Shown piece by piece: positions 14,932-61,265 of a DNA stretch of 64,000 nt. The position numbers and the translations under genes were made by a program. The DNA comes from a virus, in the IMG/VR virus record IMGVR_UViG_3300037507_005588, positions 1-64,000 of that record. One strand, given 5' to 3'. Under the pieces are notes generated by a model, which made no database searches, was not told the origin of the DNA, and worked only from the letters and a program-made list of their open reading frames with translations. Within the stretch, counting starts at the first letter, position 1. Each line of letters starts with the position of its first letter.

Positions 14932-15774
14932 TTACTTTAATAAATGATAATATTCGTTGAAATGTTTGATTCTATCTGCCAATCCAATAGTTCCACCGTT
15001 AACTCTTTTTGTAACTGCGGTTACTGTTGCTGAATCAGCACCTTTGTCCGCAATGGCGTTCAAACCATTTTTGGAAAAAAACCAAGCCGCAGATGCCAAA
15101 GGGTATTTTGTTGCAACCAAATCAGGGTTAGCAACCGTATCTTCACCGATTGACTTCGCAAAAGCGGTGTAGTTTGCTTTTCCTGTCAATTGAATGTATC
15201 CACGTCCTCTAAATTTGAAACCTTCTTTGGTTGTTTCATCTCCGTTACCCATTCTTCCACCATAAACTTTTGATGCGATTTTTTCAGGGTTTCTTGCATA
15301 AGATTCTGCAAGATTACCTGGAAAATATTTCGGGAAAATTCTCTTTAGACCATCAGCAGAATAATTCAAGTTTTCTTGAACAGCTCTGAAGTTTCCTGAT
15401 TCGTGACCACACTGAGCCAAAAAGTGTGCTAAACGCAATGGTGTGTTGATTTGGAATTTTTCCATAACTGTCGGAATCTGAGTAATAACCGAGTCGGGTA
15501 CATGACCTTTAAGTTTTGAAAGTTCGATTGGTCCACCTTTTGGTATAACTACGTCTTCTTTGATTACTTCCTTCGATACCGTTTCTTGTGTGGTAACGCC
15601 AAGTTTAGCCAACGTTGCAGGTCCTGCAATTCCGTCTGCGGTCAAACCATTTTTTGTTTGCCAAGCTTTTAATTGTTTTTCAGTGCCAGGTCCGAATACC
15701 CCGTCAGCGGCCAGACCTAATTTTGCTTGGAGTTGTTTTACTTCCTCTCCTTTGGAACCTTTTTTTAGTATCAT
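14932..15774 (-). CDS. endolysin: peptidoglycan-binding domain plus GH19 catalytic domain
   Basis: DGVFGPGTE..DGIAGPAT PG-binding domain; FLAQCGHES, FRGRGYIQLTGKANY, VNGG. Confidence 0.9.
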   Translation of the reverse strand: MILKKGSKGEEVKQLQAKLGLAADGVFGPGTEKQLKAWQTKNGLTADGIAGPATLAKLGVTTQETVSKEVIKEDVVIPKGGPIELSKLKGHVPDSVITQIPTVMEKFQINTPLRLAHFLAQCGHESGNFRAVQENLNYSADGLKRIFPKYFPGNLAESYARNPEKIASKVYGGRMGNGDETTKEGFKFRGRGYIQLTGKANYTAFAKSIGEDTVANPDLVATKYPLASAAWFFSKNGLNAIADKGADSATVTAVTKRVNGGTIGLADRIKHFNEYYHLLK

Positions 15775-43639: not shown

Positions 43640-44230
43640 ATGAAAGTTTTATTCTTAGATAACGACGGTGTAATTTGTCTTGCCAACACTTGGGGGACTA
43701 GAAACAAAAAACGCCAAAAGGCGGGTCTTTCCACTAAAGTACCTTTTAAGGAACTACCTCTTGATGTTAGGTTCGACAACTTTGACAAGAAATCAGTTCA
43801 AGTATTGAATGAAATTTTGGAAGAAACTGGTGCTGAACTTGTTGTCAGTTCTGATTGGAGATTTTACGCAACACTCGAAGAACTCGGTGATTACTACCAA
43901 TCTCAAGGTATTAATAAAAGACCAATTGACGTCACCGAAAAGTTTTCTGATGCGTTTCCTAAAGAATGGAGTGGTCTAAGATTCAGGGCCGAACTTGAGC
44001 TCGAAAGGTTTATGGAAATTGAACTTTGGTTGGAAAATCATCCCGAAGTTACTCAATGGGTTGCAGTTGATGATTTGGATATGAGTATTGATTATCTTGG
44101 ACCGAGGTTTTCAGATAAGAATGGTTCCGATAAAAAACCAGGTCTTACCAATTTTGTTTTAACTCCAAAGTCAACTGAAGGTATTAAACAATATGGTATT
44201 AAAGATAAAATTTTGAAATATTTATTATAA
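43640..44230 (+). CDS. HAD-superfamily protein (HAD_SAK_2, RNA-repair-associated type)
   Basis: FLDNDGV, VSSDWR, VAVDD. Confidence 0.75.
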   Translation: MKVLFLDNDGVICLANTWGTRNKKRQKAGLSTKVPFKELPLDVRFDNFDKKSVQVLNEILEETGAELVVSSDWRFYATLEELGDYYQSQGINKRPIDVTEKFSDAFPKEWSGLRFRAELELERFMEIELWLENHPEVTQWVAVDDLDMSIDYLGPRFSDKNGSDKKPGLTNFVLTPKSTEGIKQYGIKDKILKYLL

Positions 44231-44835
44231 TGATTATTATAGACAACTTCATCAAAGACTTAGATTTTTTGGAAAGAATTGAAAAATCTGATAAATTTTG
44301 GGAACGTGGATATCAGTGGTACGACGGTTGGTGGAATCTCGAACCGAATAATTTAAGACATCACTTAATCAAAGCTATTTGGGGTCCCAACTCACCTCAT
44401 CCCAATATTTCATGTTTGGGATTCGAACATTGGGTTGGTGATTTTACAGACACATCTGAAAGTTTTGAACAAATGGGTAGAGAATATTCTTTGAAACTCC
44501 ATTTTGACAAAGACGAAGATTATTGGAAAGAACATAAAACAATTCTTGGTCCTAAAATAGGTACGGTATTTTACCCATGTAGGGAAATTAACGAAATGGA
44601 AGGTGGTATGTTATACCATTGGGAGAATTATGATTCATCCAAGTTAACTCCTGAAGGTTGGTTGACAGAACCTGAAGATGAGCCCGAAATCATCAAAGCT
44701 AAATTCAATAGATTGATTATTTTTGATGCGTCAAAACTACACGGGGTTTCCAAAGTAACCAAAGGTAGACGTAGAGCTATTGCAATTAATTTGTGGGACA
44801 AAAAACCACTCGAATTTGTCAATAAAGATTATTAA
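44230..44835 (+). CDS. 2OG-Fe(II) oxygenase
   Basis: HFDKD..GG..FNRL..LHGV..R. Confidence 0.75.
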   Translation: MIIIDNFIKDLDFLERIEKSDKFWERGYQWYDGWWNLEPNNLRHHLIKAIWGPNSPHPNISCLGFEHWVGDFTDTSESFEQMGREYSLKLHFDKDEDYWKEHKTILGPKIGTVFYPCREINEMEGGMLYHWENYDSSKLTPEGWLTEPEDEPEIIKAKFNRLIIFDASKLHGVSKVTKGRRRAIAINLWDKKPLEFVNKDY

Positions 44836-44913: not shown

Positions 44914-45957
44914 TCATTTAGCCTGTTCGATTTCCGAAAGTTGATTTTGGAAAATTTGTATTTGTAATCTATAATAAAGAATTTTCTGATTCAAATCCAA
45001 AATTTCTTTGGAGTTTTTGTTCCTAATCAAAGAGTTATCTGTTTGATTCAACATTTCATTTTCTAATTCGGAAATTTTTTTCTGCACCGATAAAATGTTG
45101 TTTTTATACAAAAGAGTTTTTCTATTCAATTTATCTATGTCAAAGAGGTGTCGACGTTCTTCATCAGTCATATCGTTGTGATAGTAATGTGCTTTAACAT
45201 TTGACAATCCATACGGGGGAGTCCCAAAACAAAAAACAAAATTGGAGGGGAGTGTAAAACCTCTTTTCACCAAAGATTCATTAAGTTCGTTGATATATCC
45301 TGTGTTTTTTGGGTGCGGATTCTCAAATTCATACCCGAACATTTTAATATCTAAATCGAATCTATTTGCAACGATTTCTTTTGTTTCATCCGTATAATAT
45401 TGTTTATAATCTCTATCTTTTTCGTTCAAATATGACTCGTTGGTCATAGGTAGAAAACTATCTTTTAACTTCAAATGAGTTGAAATTAAGTCAAAATCCT
45501 CATTGAGTTTTTCAAAAGCACCAATAAAGTTGACAATAAATTTACCACTCTCATCAATTAGATAATACGTTTGAGGTGTGCGGTTACTATAATAACAAGT
45601 TCTTAACCATTCCAAATCTACATGAGGGTCATTGGTAGGTAATCTATCTTGCATCTGTAAAATATTTCCATTGAATTTCCAATTTATGAATTCATCAAAT
45701 GTCATATCGATATTCTTATTCCTGACATAATACCTCCAACAAGAAACTTGGAGGTCCCATGGATTTCTTACAAAAGCAAATTTGAATAAAGATTCAAAAA
45801 AAATTGGTTCCAACCAATCACGGTATTGGACGGATAGAGCGTGAGTTAATTCGTGATACAAAAATTCTGTATACGAATGAAGTGAGTCTTCAATTGAGGA
45901 CCCAGCCGTTTTTGGGATATGAATAAAAAGAAACGGAGGGTCAGTAGATAAAACCAT
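44914..45957 (-). CDS. sulfotransferase family 2 protein
   Basis: FIHIPKTAGSS; FVRNPWD..VS. Confidence 0.85.
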   Translation of the reverse strand: MVLSTDPPFLFIHIPKTAGSSIEDSLHSYTEFLYHELTHALSVQYRDWLEPIFFESLFKFAFVRNPWDLQVSCWRYYVRNKNIDMTFDEFINWKFNGNILQMQDRLPTNDPHVDLEWLRTCYYSNRTPQTYYLIDESGKFIVNFIGAFEKLNEDFDLISTHLKLKDSFLPMTNESYLNEKDRDYKQYYTDETKEIVANRFDLDIKMFGYEFENPHPKNTGYINELNESLVKRGFTLPSNFVFCFGTPPYGLSNVKAHYYHNDMTDEERRHLFDIDKLNRKTLLYKNNILSVQKKISELENEMLNQTDNSLIRNKNSKEILDLNQKILYYRLQIQIFQNQLSEIEQAK

Positions 45958-49661: not shown

Positions 49662-50264
49662 TTATTCAATAATATTTTTCCAAGAATCCTTTTCATAACC
49701 CCACATTTCAAAGTCTTCGGTTCTTTTTTGATAAACAATGTCCGCCAATTCTTGAGTATAATAAGAATGATATGGTTTTTTGTATTGTTCCAAATAGTTG
49801 GTTTGCCAAGGTTTTTTACCATCTTGAATCATATCCAACAATTCTGACAATTCAGTTTGATTGTCTTTTATAAATGGTATTCGTAAAAGGTCTTGATATA
49901 AATTTTCATGTCTTACAAGATAATCAGGTTTGGTGTTGTACCTTTTGAGGGTCCCCAATTCATGCCAATTATTATCATAATTCAAATCCAAGAATTCGTT
50001 ATGGTTTCTAACGAAATCTGAAAAAGAAACCTTCTTATCTTTTGGAATGTCATCGGTACCGTTTCTTAAAATCCACCATGAGACAGTTCTTGAATAAGGA
50101 TTTCTAATGTTTAATATTATCGACCAACTTGGGTCAATAACTTCCATTCCATGACTTATTCCATAGTCAACGAAACCCAAATTGGTGGCAATCATAGATG
50201 TTGCTCTACTTGCCGTTCTTGGAGGACCCCACCAATGACATTTATATTTTTCAGAAATATACAT
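49662..50264 (-). CDS. sulfotransferase-like protein
   Basis: PPRTASR; RNPYSRTVS; paralogue of 51730-52329. Confidence 0.7.
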   Translation of the reverse strand: MYISEKYKCHWWGPPRTASRATSMIATNLGFVDYGISHGMEVIDPSWSIILNIRNPYSRTVSWWILRNGTDDIPKDKKVSFSDFVRNHNEFLDLNYDNNWHELGTLKRYNTKPDYLVRHENLYQDLLRIPFIKDNQTELSELLDMIQDGKKPWQTNYLEQYKKPYHSYYTQELADIVYQKRTEDFEMWGYEKDSWKNIIE

Positions 50265-50269
50265 GTGCG

Positions 50270-51088
50270 TTAAATCTTATCGTAGTTGAAATAAATAAAA
50301 TCTTTTTCAAATTTTTTATTAATCCAATCGATGTTTTCTTTACTGATATCTTCTAATCCAAATCTTTTTTCTGAGTAGTAGTGTGAACCTATGTTTGCAG
50401 ATTTGTTGATTCTTATTTTAGTATTGTAGTTAAACATAAGATTATCAAACTCTTCTTTCAAATTCTCCAATTTGATAACATGGGGTATAACTTTCTTGTC
50501 TTTGTAATATACAAAATCATACATAGTGTCAGATTTTATAATAGATTCTGAAACCCAAACATTAAACTCATCTTTGGTTGGTTTATATTGACTTCTGTTT
50601 TGAAATACAAGATTGAATGGGCAATAAGTCAAACTTAAAATTCTATCATAAGGGTTTCTTACTGTGGTAAACAATACCTTGTCTTTGATTAAGTCTGGAT
50701 TGTTCATAAAGTAATTTGATGGTGAATGATAACTATGGGGTGTTTCGTACCATTTTGACCACCTTACACCCCATTCATAACCAGTGTTTTCTATTGTAGA
50801 CCCACCACATTTTGGGATATGGATGTAATGTAGTTCAGTGGATTCTTCTCCTTTATGTGCGAAATAGTCTTGGACTATACGAATCTCTTTGCCAGGATAC
50901 ATTTTCAAAAATGAATGTCCAACCCAAGAGGAATAAGGTTTGATTGCTGGGTTGAAGACAGTTTCATGTAAAATATCCTCACCATACATCAGATTAATTA
51001 TAACCCCGTCATAATTTCTAGGAACTGTATATTTGCAATAAAATTCACCTGTTTCGCTGAAAATTTTTTCAAATGGAAGTGATTTCAT
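50270..51088 (-). CDS. sulfotransferase family 2 protein
   Basis: IHIPKCGGSTIE; VRNPYDRILS. Confidence 0.8.
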   Translation of the reverse strand: MKSLPFEKIFSETGEFYCKYTVPRNYDGVIINLMYGEDILHETVFNPAIKPYSSWVGHSFLKMYPGKEIRIVQDYFAHKGEESTELHYIHIPKCGGSTIENTGYEWGVRWSKWYETPHSYHSPSNYFMNNPDLIKDKVLFTTVRNPYDRILSLTYCPFNLVFQNRSQYKPTKDEFNVWVSESIIKSDTMYDFVYYKDKKVIPHVIKLENLKEEFDNLMFNYNTKIRINKSANIGSHYYSEKRFGLEDISKENIDWINKKFEKDFIYFNYDKI

Positions 51089-51242
51089 ATTTTGTATATT
51101 GTTGATATTATAACGGAATAAAAAAGATTGTCCATAAAAATTAACCGTAGTTAGTTTGGAAATTAGAATACTTATTGTATCTTTGTAGGGTTGAAACGGG
51201 GATAACACCCCGAAGGTCTTTGAAATGTTGGTGAAAAAAGTT

Positions 51243-51329: not shown

Positions 51330-51427
51330 GGTGTAGTAGCTCAGGAGGAATGCCCATATGACATTCCCATGGTAGAGCAGAGTCCTGAAAAAACTTGTGC
51401 CACGTGGTTCGAACCCCGTCTACACCA
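51330..51427 (+). tRNA. aberrant tRNA-Phe(GAA)-like RNA with hairpin inserted in the D-loop
   Basis: perfect acceptor GGTGTAG/CTACACC; D-stem GCTC/GAGC encloses GGAATG..CATTCC. Confidence 0.6.
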
Positions 51428-53277: not shown

Positions 53278-53769
53278 ATGGGAACTAACTATTACCGGGT
53301 ACCCCAAGGACACGAAATGATTAAGCGGGAGCAAAAGCTCCGCATGCGGATTGATGAAATGGATTCAATTAATCCAGGACAAATTGAGCGGGGATTTCGT
53401 TCAATCTCAGTTGGTGAGTGGGTTTCTATTTCACCTTGGGAGGAGTTCTTGGAAGGAACCAACATCCACTTGGGTAAGCGAAGCTCTGGTTGGAAATTTC
53501 TTTGGAACTGGAACGACTCAGAATACTACAAGACCAAAGAAGAACTCTTTGAGTTTATCCGGAGTGGTCGTGTGGTTAACGAATACGGAGAACTTATAGA
53601 CCAAGAAGAGTTTATTCAAATGGCTCTTGAGTGGGGTCAGGAAGATGGATGGGACATTCAAACATACTATAAGGAACATCCTGAACACCGTACGAGTTCT
53701 CTTTCAAACAAAAAACAAGAGCAGTATCTTTATGGTCTTCGGGTTTCCACCCGTGTTGAGTTTTCATAA
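53278..53769 (+). CDS. conserved phage hypothetical protein
   Basis: MGTNYY..HLGKRSSGWKF..NEYG..EFS. Confidence 0.75.
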   Translation: MGTNYYRVPQGHEMIKREQKLRMRIDEMDSINPGQIERGFRSISVGEWVSISPWEEFLEGTNIHLGKRSSGWKFLWNWNDSEYYKTKEELFEFIRSGRVVNEYGELIDQEEFIQMALEWGQEDGWDIQTYYKEHPEHRTSSLSNKKQEQYLYGLRVSTRVEFS

Positions 53770-53782
53770 TTCTTTCTACTAC

Positions 53783-53806
53783 ACGGGGACTTCGGTCCCC
53801 GTTTTT
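53783..53806 (+). terminator. terminator-like hairpin directly before tRNA-Met
   Basis: ACGGGGAC-TTCG-GTCCCCGT-TTTT. Confidence 0.7.
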
Positions 53807-53808
53807 AT

Positions 53809-53882
53809 GGCAAGGTAGTTCAGTTGGTCAGAACACATGATTCATAACCATGAGGTCGGGAGTTCGATTCTCCCCCTTGCTA
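53809..53882 (+). tRNA. tRNA-Met(CAT), elongator
   Basis: cloverleaf; GGC start, paired 1-72. Confidence 0.8.
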
Positions 53883-53910
53883 CATCAAAAATTTTTATTA
53901 TATTTGCACT

Positions 53911-54489
53911 ATGAAAATCAGTAGAAAAGACCTTGAATGGTTCATCAAGAATATCCGAACTCACAGTGAGGGTAAAGAACTCACCGATGAACAATTGGTA
54001 GATGAACTTGCCACCTACATGGAGAGAAATCCAAGGTGTGTGGATATTCATGGTGTCAGTGACCCTGGTAGATTCTATTACTCGACTGTCGGATATGGAG
54101 TGTTCTCTTTGTTTGGTGAGAAATACCGAATGGGAAGAATTGAAATCTTTGATAGTCAAGACGAGTCAGGTTACGCTGTTGATGAGGGTATCTACACGAT
54201 GCCATTCGTAGCTGCGAATCAGTTCGAAGACTTCATTGACTCACTTGAGACCGATTTACCAATCCATATCTCAATTGGTTCTCATGAGTGGTGTGAAAAA
54301 GAGTGTGCCAAAGCTCTCGGATTTGAAAATCCCGATGAGATGAGGGACCCTGAAAAAATCCAAGCATTTCAAAGAAAGAAAAATGATGATTATGCGGTAG
54401 AACGTGGATTCAAAGATTTTGATGATTTGTGGACAAATAGTAAATTCGGTGGTAAAGCACCAAGTAACTTAAAAAACGAAGAAAAATGA
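53911..54489 (+). CDS. hypothetical protein
   Basis: 192-aa ORF after TATATTTG. Confidence 0.75.
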   Translation: MKISRKDLEWFIKNIRTHSEGKELTDEQLVDELATYMERNPRCVDIHGVSDPGRFYYSTVGYGVFSLFGEKYRMGRIEIFDSQDESGYAVDEGIYTMPFVAANQFEDFIDSLETDLPIHISIGSHEWCEKECAKALGFENPDEMRDPEKIQAFQRKKNDDYAVERGFKDFDDLWTNSKFGGKAPSNLKNEEK

Positions 54490-54582
54490 TTGTAATTGGT
54501 CTAATAGTAATTGTGCAGTTGTTTGCAATTCTAAAACAAATTGAGAAGGGGAACAACTCACCAACAAAACATCCAAAAGGAA

Positions 54583-54867
54583 ATGAATACAATAGAAGAT
54601 ATTGAAAAAGTAGTTAGTGGATTCTTGATGAAGAATCACAACGAACTTGGTTTGGGTGAATTTGATTTTGTCTACAACGAAGAAGTTATGGAACACGTTC
54701 ACAGTATTTGTGTGAGCATTTTGTGTACCAAACATGGTATCGGTTACCCTGGCGGAGGGTTCGTTCAAGCAGTTGTCAACAACGACTTGATGGGAGCTTT
54801 CGGTCGGGCGGACAGTATCAACAAAAAGTACATCGGTCTATACGTAAAACTTTTATACAATTATTAA
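54583..54867 (+). CDS. hypothetical protein
   Basis: PGGGFVQAVVNNDL..AFGRAD. Confidence 0.65.
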   Translation: MNTIEDIEKVVSGFLMKNHNELGLGEFDFVYNEEVMEHVHSICVSILCTKHGIGYPGGGFVQAVVNNDLMGAFGRADSINKKYIGLYVKLLYNY

Positions 54868-55094
54868 CAAAGTTCTGTCGCTCCACGGAGAGGAAACTCA
54901 GGACATCTCAGCTTAAGGTGGGAGATATAAGGATTACAACTTATAATGGTCAGTTATAAGTCCACATCATTATATCATAATTACCACCGAGGATGCAACC
55001 CAAAATAGTCCATGACGGTGAGCTGGTCGGACAAGGTGGGGGCCAAAAGATTAATGACAGATTAAATACAGAATCCTGGTTATACTTTGTTGAT
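54863..55094 (+). ncRNA. rnpB: RNase P RNA, minimal type-A-like
   Basis: GAGGAAACTCAGGA and ACAGAATCCTGGTTAT form P4 with bulged U; P1, P2, P3, P5, P6, P7 and P15-17 can all be paired. Confidence 0.88.
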
Positions 55095-55099
55095 TAAAC

Positions 55100-55171
55100 G
55101 CCCCCTTAGGCTAATGGATAAACCACTTCACTACGGATGAAGTTTTGGGAGTTCGAATCTCTCAGGGGGTA
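55100..55171 (+). tRNA. tRNA-Arg(ACG)
   Basis: cloverleaf. Confidence 0.9.
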
Positions 55172-55226
55172 CTGAAAAAAAGATTTGGATATTTATAAAA
55201 TCTTTCTTATCTTTGTACTATCAAAT

Positions 55227-55298
55227 GGCCCGGTCGTCTATCGGTCAGGACACGTCCCTTTCACGGATGAAAGCGGGGTTCGATTCCCCGTCGGGCTA
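55227..55298 (+). tRNA. tRNA-Glu(TTC)
   Basis: cloverleaf. Confidence 0.92.
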
Positions 55299-55304
55299 CA
55301 ACAT

Positions 55305-55376
55305 CGCGGGGTAGAGCAGTGGTAGCTTACGAGGCTCATAACCTCGGGGTCGGAGGTTCGAATCCTCCCCCCGCAA
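55305..55376 (+). tRNA. initiator tRNA-fMet(CAT)
   Basis: C1:A72 mismatch, CGCGGGG start. Confidence 0.9.
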
Positions 55377-55380
55377 CAAA

Positions 55381-55448
55381 GTAGACCTTCAAAAGGGCCC
55401 TTCCGTCTCTGCGTGAGCGGCTTGCTGGGCCCGGGTCTACCTCTTTTT
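55381..55448 (+). ncRNA. GC-rich bulged hairpin between tRNAs
   Basis: GTAGACCT/GGGTCTAC, GGGCCC/GGGCCC, CCG/CGG, CTC/GAG. Confidence 0.4.
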
Positions 55449-55450
55449 AA

Positions 55451-55523
55451 GCGAAAGTAGCTCAGTTGGTAGAGCATGACCTTGCCAAGGTCAGGGTCGC
55501 CGGTTCGAATCCGGTCTTTCGCT
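55451..55523 (+). tRNA. tRNA-Gly(GCC)
   Basis: cloverleaf; U73. Confidence 0.93.
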
Positions 55524-55528
55524 CGAAT

Positions 55529-55602
55529 AGTTGAGTAGCTCAGTGGTAGAGCAATCCCATTTATGGGATGTGACGCGATAGGTTCGATTCCTGCCTCAAC
55601 TA
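55529..55602 (+). tRNA. tRNA-like RNA without a canonical anticodon loop
   Basis: perfect acceptor and D arm; ATCCC-ATTTAT-GGGAT 6-nt loop; bulged T-stem. Confidence 0.6.
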
Positions 55603-55617
55603 CAAACCTATTTCATA

Positions 55618-56169
55618 ATGTCAAACTTATGTGAAAATATTATCTACTATGATAATTTTCGAGTCATACCAAATGTAATTAATGAACAAGAAGTTCAAGA
55701 ACTATTAAAATATTGGAATGGTATAACAATAGGTGTTTCGGTAAATATTAATAGATGGGATGTACACTCAACTACAAAAACAAAGATACAAGCATCCAAC
55801 CGTAATGTAGAAATTATTGGTATTCCGAATAACAAATTTGTTTTTTTAACTGAAAAACTTATTGAATGTTTTTCGTGTTTTATTGAAGACCCATCTTTAG
55901 AATCTCCACACTATTTCACTTATTATCCTGTTGGGGGTAAACACTCCAAACACAGAGATTCGGGACCTGAATTCAATCGGGACTTGGTCCTGACACTTTT
56001 TTTGAATGATGATTTCCAAGGAGGAGAATTGATAATCAATGGAGAAACTGCCCCTGTTAAAAAATATTCAGCAATTATTTACGATGGAAATTTGTTTCAT
56101 GAGGTAAAAAGTGTTACCTTTGGTGAAAGATTTGTAATAACTGAATGTGCTGGTAAAAAATTGAAATAA
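55618..56169 (+). CDS. 2OG-Fe(II) oxygenase
   Basis: KHRD..LFLNDDFQGGEL..HEV..GER. Confidence 0.8.
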   Translation: MSNLCENIIYYDNFRVIPNVINEQEVQELLKYWNGITIGVSVNINRWDVHSTTKTKIQASNRNVEIIGIPNNKFVFLTEKLIECFSCFIEDPSLESPHYFTYYPVGGKHSKHRDSGPEFNRDLVLTLFLNDDFQGGELIINGETAPVKKYSAIIYDGNLFHEVKSVTFGERFVITECAGKKLK

Positions 56170-57587: not shown

Positions 57588-57663
57588 AGACGGATAGCTC
57601 AGGGGTGAGAGCAGGATGCTTATACCATCAAGGTCTTGGGTTCGATTCCCATTCCGTCTACCA
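57588..57663 (+). tRNA. tRNA-Ile(TAT) with encoded CCA
   Basis: GATG-CT-TAT-AC-CATC anticodon arm; A73-CCA. Confidence 0.8.
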
Positions 57664-60821: not shown

Positions 60822-60855
60822 AAAAAACCCCTCCCGAAAGAGGGGTTCTTTTTTT
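60822..60855. terminator. bidirectional terminator ending the tmRNA and the upstream + strand operon
   Basis: AAAAAACCCCTC-CCGAAA-GAGGGGTT-CTTTTT. Confidence 0.75.
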
Positions 60856-61265
60856 GGTGGAGGTGGCGGGAATCGAACCCGCGTCTTGCTCAGTCTACCC
60901 ATAAAGGACTACATGCTTAGGTCAGGGTTTTTCACACCCTCCGAACTATTTGGTTTCTATTTTACCATCGTCACCAACAACTGTGGGGTGTTCACTCAAA
61001 TCGGTAGAACACCAAACGTTACCTCCATTCCTTTTTGGGTAGAAACCACACCGTAGGGACTTCTGTTTCCAGGTTATATGTCCATCGACCCATTGTCACT
61101 ATAGCCTTAGGCTACAGTAACTTCCTCAGCTTGGATAAGACCCAAAGCCTCGAGAGTTGCGAAAGTTTCGCCGTTTGATTGTTGCATCCATAGATTAAGG
61201 TGATAGGAAACATCTCACCGCATGCCCCGTATGACTAACTCTGCCAATCAATACCGGTCACCCCC
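60855..61265 (-). ncRNA. ssrA: tmRNA
   Basis: GGGGGTG/CACCTCC-ACCA acceptor with G3:U70; T-arm GCGGG-TTCGATT-CCCGC; tag ORF 61172-61107. Confidence 0.93.

Follow-up and report, generated by a model that had tools for sequence, protein, structure and literature searches.

RNase P RNA, the ribozyme responsible for trimming newly made tRNAs, is seen as a universal ribozyme of cells and organelles. The M1 RNA of Escherichia coli (rnpB), 377 nucleotides (nt) long, belongs to bacterial type A, in which a specificity domain (S-domain) with the conserved regions (CR) CR-II and CR-III reads the T/D-loop elbow of the tRNA, and the loop of helix P18 normally docks on P8 of this domain. The subject here is a mini RNase P RNA gene encoded by a phage, a 232-nt element at positions 54863-55094 (+) of a 64,000-nt stretch of DNA (the window) that makes up the first 64 kb of the 89.8-kb IMG/VR virus record IMGVR_UViG_3300037507_005588.

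Several reduced relatives of this RNA have been described. The archaeal type T RNAs of Thermoproteaceae have naturally lost most of the S-domain with the catalytic domain (C-domain) complete, and they are marked by a P2 of 3 base pairs (bp), a 2-nt P5/P15 linker, and a P10 ending in a small loop (PMC3579882). The RNAs of Candidate Phyla Radiation (CPR) bacteria and of Mycoplasma fermentans are without P12, P13, P14, and P18 and sometimes without GGU/UGG (Lui et al., 2021; PMC8172020). The E. coli C-domain without the S-domain still cleaves, depending on a P6-like contact, and P18 makes no difference to this S-domain-less construct (Mao et al., 2018; PMC5839562). The only viral precedent found is the RNase P-like RNA of camelpox virus, which is inactive (PMC3001073).

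The covariance-model search that the original prediction had proposed returned a full-model match of the window element to RF00010, the Rfam bacterial class A RNase P, which is also the best-scoring model of the Rfam RNase P clan. Model positions 1-367 align over 54863-55098 with 42.0 bits and E-values of 8.8e-12 (local) and 3.4e-13 (whole record). The curated gathering score of RF00010 is 100 bits, and a default Rfam scan of the window at curated thresholds gives no RNase P match, only 25 tRNAs and a tmRNA; the element is missed by routine annotation because its score is below the gathering threshold, and it appears only with E-value reporting. The low score is explained by a shortened P3, by 15 nt in place of the 93 model positions of P10-P14, and by 2 nt in place of the 24 of P18. 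A covariance model of its own family (R1, built from the window element and three close relatives) scores the element at 294 bits, while its single-sequence minimum free energy fold has a z of -2.45 by a method that cannot represent pseudoknots and is uninformative by itself. Judged from sequence, 54863-55094 is a real RNase P RNA homologue and no chance resemblance.

The source record is about 30% complete by CheckV, has a GC content of about 35%, and recurs as near-identical DNA in 14 lake-water metagenome runs of 2020-2024. It is viral because it carries an endolysin gene (14932-15774) and the genes for a terminase large subunit and a portal protein (record positions ~74.5-78.1 kb). The claim of a phage-encoded minimal RNase P RNA without most of the S-domain is upheld by these three genes together with the RF00010 match and the covariation in 40 homologues described below, and it is almost certain that this phage carries the element as an RNase P RNA homologue under selection.

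The helices proposed for the element were each checked by script at their coordinates, and every named part (P1-P7, P15-17 with GGU, and J18/2) is present, as follows:

54863-54873 with 55084-55094 (+): P1, 11 standard pairs, all 11 covarying in the family
54874-54879 with 55056-55061 (+): P2, UCUGUC/GACAGA, 6 bp plus G-U
54881-54890 (+): P3 hairpin, CUC-CACG-GAG, 3 bp, two of the three pairs covarying
54891-54903 (+): CR-I, made up of J3/4 and the 5' strand of P4, AGGAAACUCAGGA, with a bulged U at 54898
54904-54907 with 54992-54995 (+): P5, CAUC/GAUG, three of four pairs covarying
54909-54914 with 55020-55025 in L17 (+): P6 pseudoknot, CAGCUU/GAGCUG
54917-54921 with 54984-54988 (+): P7, GGUGG/CCACC, four of five pairs covarying
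54922-54983 (+): specificity-domain remnant, one 62-nt AT-rich hairpin with no CR-II/CR-III motifs
54996-54998 (+): J5/15, CAA, directly 3' of P5
54999-55040 (+): P15-P16-P17 module, GGU at 55035-55037 in the P15/16 loop, helices 12-14 all covarying
55048-55056 (+): J18/2 (CR-IV), AGAUUAAUG, conserved across the family
from 55062 (+): J2/4 plus CR-V, UUAAAUACAGAA
55074-55081 (+): 3' strand of P4, UCCUGGUU

The element shares with bacterial type A (RF00010) the whole set P1-P7, the P4 and P6 pseudoknots, the bulged U, CR-I, CR-IV, CR-V, J5/15, P15-P17 with GGU, J18/2, and J2/4. The P1-P2-P3 stack, P5/P7, and the J5/15 adenosines are found with covariation in helices 1, 2, 3, 5, and 8. In P4, AAC-U-CAGGA pairs with UCCUGGUU over 8 bp plus the bulged U, and the flanking regions are CR-I (GAGGAAAGUCC-like) and CR-V (ACAGAANCCGGCUUA-like), represented here by AGGAAACUCAGGA with ACAGAAUCCUGGUUA; the CR-I region lines up with the consensus GAGGAAAGUCCGG in the RF00010 alignment. 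The type A hallmark of P15-P16-P17 with a GGU internal loop is present together with P6, the pseudoknot between L17 and J5/7, and so are the joining regions J18/2 (CR-IV, AGAUGAAUG-like) and J2/4.

The element differs from type A in its length of 232 nt (about 230 nt had been predicted), its 3-bp P3, its phage origin with no rnpA gene alongside, and the loss of P10-P14 with CR-II/CR-III and of P18. A specificity domain (P8-P14) with CR-II/CR-III is absent from the element, and the motifs ACAGAAA and GUGAAA were not found in the 62-nt stub, in agreement with the claim that the S-domain had shrunk to one AT-rich hairpin. The P18 hairpin that would dock on P8 is likewise missing from the window element, just upstream of J18/2 (55041-55047), as had been claimed. 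The RNA thus appears to be of bacterial type A ancestry and stripped to its catalytic domain, with a single hairpin as what is left of the specificity domain.

Homologues were collected by five pattern scans of IMG/VR for conserved core strings at 'mini' spacing. RF00010 was run on the 17 whole viral records from the first three scans; in 14, the full model matched over just 200-281 nt, and two of the 14 are above the gathering score. Two of the family-bearing records are complete genomes with direct terminal repeats (DTR), 183.6 and 167.8 kb long. R1, applied to the window and to every one of the 43 loci from the five scans, recovered 40 full-length or near-full-length members, 37 of them at 51-294 bits and the three most divergent (L010, L011, and L015) at 24-36 bits. 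The locus L016 was rejected as a member, being a chance pattern match in coding DNA with no covariance-model match. The window element is therefore not a one-off but one member of a family found in many large phages.

Standard pairs occupy 96.1% of the cells of the family alignment, as compared with 70.6% after shuffling and 33-46% after sliding by one to three columns, although the alignment was fitted to nested helices, so that the pairing counts of these helices lean towards structure. Changes on both sides occur in 50 of 69 pairs, and the covariation score of 0.457 (0.116 in shuffled alignments) was reached by none of 500 shuffles. The P4 and P6 pseudoknots were left out of R1, yet P4 is 99.6% paired in 35 distinct sequences with four covarying pairs, and P6 is 97-98% paired with two covarying pairs (CG/UA and AU/UA/CG). 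Single P4 positions vary among C-G, G-C, U-G, and U-A, or among A-U, G-C, and C-G, in line with the compensatory changes from consensus first noticed in the window; the covariation in relatives and the conservation of P4, both raised in the original prediction, are borne out by the alignment. In P2, five of six pairs show changes on both sides (98.5% paired), P3 ranges from 3 to 7 bp among relatives, and J5/15 reads GCAA in 39 of the 40 members and GCGA in L036.

The closest relatives also differ from the window element less than their neighbourhoods do. L006 has two differences in 232 nt, both in the stub hairpin, whereas its flanking 7 kb diverges by 2.7%; L027, L025, and L029 are about 90% identical to the element, with 72-80% identity in the neighbouring genes. 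The element thus evolves more slowly than its surroundings and is almost certainly kept by selection.

Variation within the family is concentrated at a few sites. Most members have about 19 nt between the P7 strands, consisting of GAG, a short and often GNRA-capped hairpin, and CGUUUGYA. In the clade of the window, this stub hairpin has grown to 61-74 nt and is AT-rich, with sequences that differ between sub-clades. A hairpin at the P18 position is kept in some relatives (L002, L004, L005, and L007), and the phage member L012 has a mini S-domain resembling that of Bacteroidales, a hint of repeated capture or of a reduction in steps. At L036:2314-2600 (-), the S-domain stub is replaced by a 107-nt insert containing a hairpin like a tRNA T-arm (CAGGTTCAAATCCTG), which may be a captured T-loop or tRNA fragment. 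A close relative of the window element, L021:10863-11125 (+), has an extra 31-nt hairpin in J2/4, between the 3' strand of P2 and CR-V, so this joining region tolerates insertion.

Members of the family are also found in published phage genomes. The 735-kb uncultured huge phage LR756501.1 has one at 181312-181538 (-), with 63.6 bits by R1, which was missed by Rfam at E <= 0.01. It had surfaced as a weak 45-nt match to LR756501.1/LR756503.1, the only match when the window element was compared by blastn with 50,697 phage records, and this lead was later confirmed with the covariance model. The cultured Stenotrophomonas phage DLP6 (KU682439.2) has an RF00010 match of 249 nt at 105774-106022 (+), with 54.7 bits and an E-value of 3.3e-17. 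It lies in an unannotated gap with a hypothetical coding sequence on one side and tRNA-Arg-CCG 3 nt downstream, the same layout as in the window. R1, a narrow model, found nothing in the whole DLP6 record and gave 19.5 bits on the excised locus. Among other blastn queries against the phage records, L015 matched only two uncultured faecal-phage records and L004 matched none; a lead from L008 to Agrobacterium phage Atu_ph04 was rejected, as neither R1 nor Rfam found an element there.

The DLP6 and LR756501.1 members are both unannotated, and RNase P is unmentioned in the DLP6 paper and in the huge-phage paper. Because these genes fall under the Rfam cut-off, tRNAs and a tmRNA are all that routine annotation of huge phages reports. 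A description of phage RNase P RNA was not found in the full-text literature searched, subscription-only papers being outside its scope, and a conserved virus-encoded RNase P RNA without an S-domain, a new form of a known RNA, could not be found in print.

In comparison with the type T RNAs, the phage RNA has likewise lost most of its S-domain and is missed by the standard Rfam model of its own lineage. However, type T RNAs are cellular RNAs of archaea with archaeal protein partners, whereas the phage RNA has a P2 of 6-7 bp and a 3-nt CAA linker in place of the 3-bp P2 and 2-nt linker that define type T, along with a bacterial P6 and P15-17. The reductions arose by convergence and are not homologous. 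The laboratory construct Eco CP RPR resembles the phage RNA in retaining P6 and dropping P18 (Mao et al., 2018; PMC5839562), so that published E. coli C-domain biochemistry matches the elements retained (P6) and lost (S-domain and P18) in the phage; the construct has reduced efficiency, whereas the phage RNA is a natural gene under selection with a hairpin stub at the P7 junction. The RNAs of CPR bacteria and Mycoplasma fermentans are also reduced and found only below Rfam thresholds, but they are cellular, single-copy essential genes, unlike the phage RNA (PMC8172020).

The camelpox RNA of orthopoxviruses is also virus-encoded and has been likened to RNase P RNA, but it belongs to a eukaryotic virus, its structural similarity is weak, and it does not cleave pre-tRNA in vitro (PMC3001073); the phage RNA, by contrast, aligns to the full covariance model, and each of its core helices covaries. 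Theta ribozymes, which are hepatitis delta virus (HDV)-like, are similarly phage-encoded, located beside phage tRNA genes, and tied to tRNA maturation; they are small, self-cleaving, cis-acting, and of unrelated fold, whereas the phage RNA is by homology a trans-acting RNase P RNA (PMC10879173).

Short RNase P RNAs of cells were sought by running the 'mini spacing' pattern on one genome per prokaryote species (GTDB), which gave 23 contigs of metagenome-assembled genomes (MAGs; L051-L073). The largest group is Elusimicrobia, most with conserved tRNA-Met and tRNA-Val upstream, and the others include rumen Bacteroidales beside tRNA-Gly-CCC, a Dojkabacteria MAG, and a Gallimonas MAG. Eight of these loci, scored with RF00010, measure 231-260 nt and reach 120-190 bits, and R1 gives the MAG RNAs 17-46 bits. 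The RNA was the sole RNase P RNA of the genome in all five MAGs tested. Examples are the following:

L065:5981-6234 (-): MAG RNase P RNA
L052:3345-3602 (-): MAG RNase P RNA
L054:607-837 (+): MAG RNase P RNA
L069:3437-3688 (+): MAG RNase P RNA

Motifs like those of CR-II/CR-III (ACAGAAA/ACAGAGA and GUGAAA) are present in seven of the eight MAG sequences, where the core S-domain is still there; the Gallimonas RNA is without them, and L057 has Ns at the motif site. Short RNase P RNAs of cells are thus not confined to the CPR cases that Lui et al. described. The figure of 350-400 nt given for bacterial RNase P RNAs in the original prediction stands for the usual case and has cellular exceptions in type T archaea, CPR bacteria, and these MAGs. 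Most of the short MAG RNAs have CR-II/CR-III-like motifs, whereas the window RNA has none, and the phage family is distinct from them.

A tRNA array on the same strand contains or adjoins the element in 11 of the 15 loci examined. A tRNA starts 3-9 nt downstream of the element in the window, L003, L008, L009, L018, and DLP6, and in L008 and L012 another tRNA ends 8-9 nt upstream. The immediate neighbours of the window element are as follows:

54541-54867 (+): open reading frame (ORF) of 108 amino acids, overlapping P1 with its stop codon; matches no Pfam family and is conserved in the closest relatives alone
55100-55172 (+): tRNA-Arg(ACG), starting 5 nt after P1, which ends at 55094, the distance that had been predicted

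Many of the 25 tRNA genes in the window are spaced only 3-7 nt apart. One further tRNA-like gene at 51330-51427 (+), between tRNA-Leu and tRNA-Tyr, has a 30-nt D-loop insertion and a GAA (Phe) anticodon; it scores 41.8 bits with the Rfam tRNA model and was missed by ARAGORN, and its region is 93% identical in the relative L021. Between tRNA-Met and tRNA-Gly, a hairpin of about 60 nt at 55381-55447 (+) (-30.4 kcal/mol, z of -3.5) is followed by a U-run and may be a terminator or attenuator in the tRNA array, marking the end of the unit that holds the ribozyme.

Contigs of one metatranscriptome run cover 54605-54896, 54867-54954, and 54980-55061, with DNA carry-over possible, and one of them spans the 108-amino-acid ORF and P1-P4. 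The contigs of the RNA libraries cover the element in part, without ends or strand and possibly including DNA, and are a weak hint of its expression. RNA-library runs X16-X18 cover mainly the neighbouring tRNAs, at the identity of relatives. A promoter scan of 53700-55800 gave five sites, with 4.7 expected.

The search for a phage protein cofactor that had been proposed as a check came out negative. Beside the window record, the set comprised DLP6, LR756501.1, two DTR-complete genomes, and a 343-kb record (four of the five complete), and PF00825 (RnpA) had no match in the record, G007, G014, G003, LR756501.1, or DLP6, the controls having matched in 10 genomes. The flanking ORFs belong to no Pfam family; no ORF within 1.5 kb of the element is common beyond the closest clade, and none is linked to it across the family. 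The most economical reading is that the RNA borrows host RnpA, because no rnpA was found in the record or the five relatives and no protein gene is linked across the family.

The element is probably a working tRNA-processing ribozyme that uses host RnpA. It would be transcribed together with the surrounding tRNA array and released from the polycistronic tRNA transcript, with RNase P cleavage at the 5' end of the downstream tRNA-Arg forming the 3' end of the ribozyme. The RNA would bind host RnpA through the retained P2/P3, J18/2, and P15 surfaces and remove the 5' leaders from the 25 pre-tRNAs of the phage and from its pre-tmRNA, with this processing capacity added to, or substituted for, that of the host during infection. 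A more specific proposal, that this is the first viral RNase P ribozyme, an elbow-blind one that with host RnpA matures the phage's own and sometimes aberrant tRNAs independently of, or in preference to, the host enzyme, is put forward tentatively and may well not hold; such an enzyme would perhaps come into use where the RNase P of the host is in short supply, switched off, or targeted.

Several points weigh against a working ribozyme of this kind. The 42 bits of the element are far under the Rfam gathering threshold of 100, and the S-domain core for reading the tRNA elbow is missing, a loss that in E. coli lowers efficiency. The encoded CCA is lacking in 24 of the 25 tRNA genes, the exception being tRNA-Ile(UAU) at 57588-57663, so the conserved GGU would find a partner only once CCA has been added, unless it is preserved for some other purpose. 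With most of the genome missing from the record, a phage-encoded cofactor may have escaped the search, and the supply of RnpA by the host is presumed. Transcription, end formation, use of host RnpA, and catalysis are all inferred.

It is unlikely, but conceivable, that the RNA is an active ribozyme without host RnpA, working alone or with an unrecognised phage protein and possibly with a changed substrate range. Its substrates may be, for example, tRNA-like RNAs with odd D/T regions or non-tRNA phage transcripts, and the tRNA-like gene with the 30-nt D-loop insert in the window encodes, speculatively, a substrate acceptable to an enzyme blind to the elbow. Isolated C-domains have in vitro activity (PMC5839562), no known family could be assigned to most of the surrounding ORFs, and in the clade of the window, a long arm (62 nt in the window element) has grown at the site of the S-domain. 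On the other side, the parts that contact RnpA (P2/P3, J18/2, and P15) are retained, and the family shares no ORF linked to the element. Moreover, bacterial RNase P RNA without protein is active only at non-physiological salt.

Improbable, too, is a non-catalytic decoy or regulator that retains the surfaces for binding RnpA and substrate, titrates host RnpA or pre-tRNAs, and so shifts tRNA maturation in favour of the phage. With no phage rnpA found, the RNA must compete for the host protein, elbow recognition has been lost, and a precedent exists in the inactive camelpox RNase P-like RNA, for which a decoy role has been discussed (PMC3001073). However, the nucleotides of the catalytic core, the P4 bulged U, J5/15, and P6 are conserved and covary in divergent phages, which a protein sponge would not need, and a location within the tRNA arrays of the phage itself fits a role in processing. 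Least credible is a decaying, functionless fragment of a captured host rnpB or a chance resemblance, since the low Rfam score and the large deletions relative to the model are countered by an E-value of ~1e-12, at least 40 homologues whose helices all show compensatory changes, a divergence lower than that of the flanking genes, and the occurrence of the element in cultured phages and in DTR-complete ones; covariation and conservation rule out a dead relic.

A virus-encoded RNase P family would add tRNA 5'-processing to the translation functions brought by big phages. If the tRNA-processing reading with host RnpA is true, a natural minimal RNase P would be accessible in the cultured phage DLP6. 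RNA biochemists would gain natural catalytic domains of minimal size (160-280 nt) that selection has shaped, and the family would show which elements are required (P6 and the P4 core) and which are dispensable (the S-domain and P18). A dedicated covariance model would find such sub-threshold phage genes.

Other genes of the tRNA region include three at 43640-44230 (+), 44230-44835 (+), and 55618-56169 (+), which encode one HAD 'Swiss Army Knife RNA repair' domain (PF18143, E-value 1.4e-21) and two 2OG-Fe(II) oxygenases; lying amid tRNA genes, they may be RNA repair or modification enzymes. Weak to moderate matches to PF03567 (sulfotransferase) occur at 44914-45957 (-), 49662-50264 (-), and 50270-51208 (-). 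The tmRNA and two genes beyond the end of the window are placed as follows:

window 60855-61265 (-): tmRNA, 83 bits
record 64198-65031 (+), that is, L074:198-1031: peptidase (phrog_4191)
record 65604-67598 (-), that is, L074:1604-3598: large ATP-dependent protease (phrog_4871, E-value 2.7e-240)

Together, the tmRNA, peptidase, and protease would form a phage-borne set for ribosome rescue and degradation of tagged proteins.

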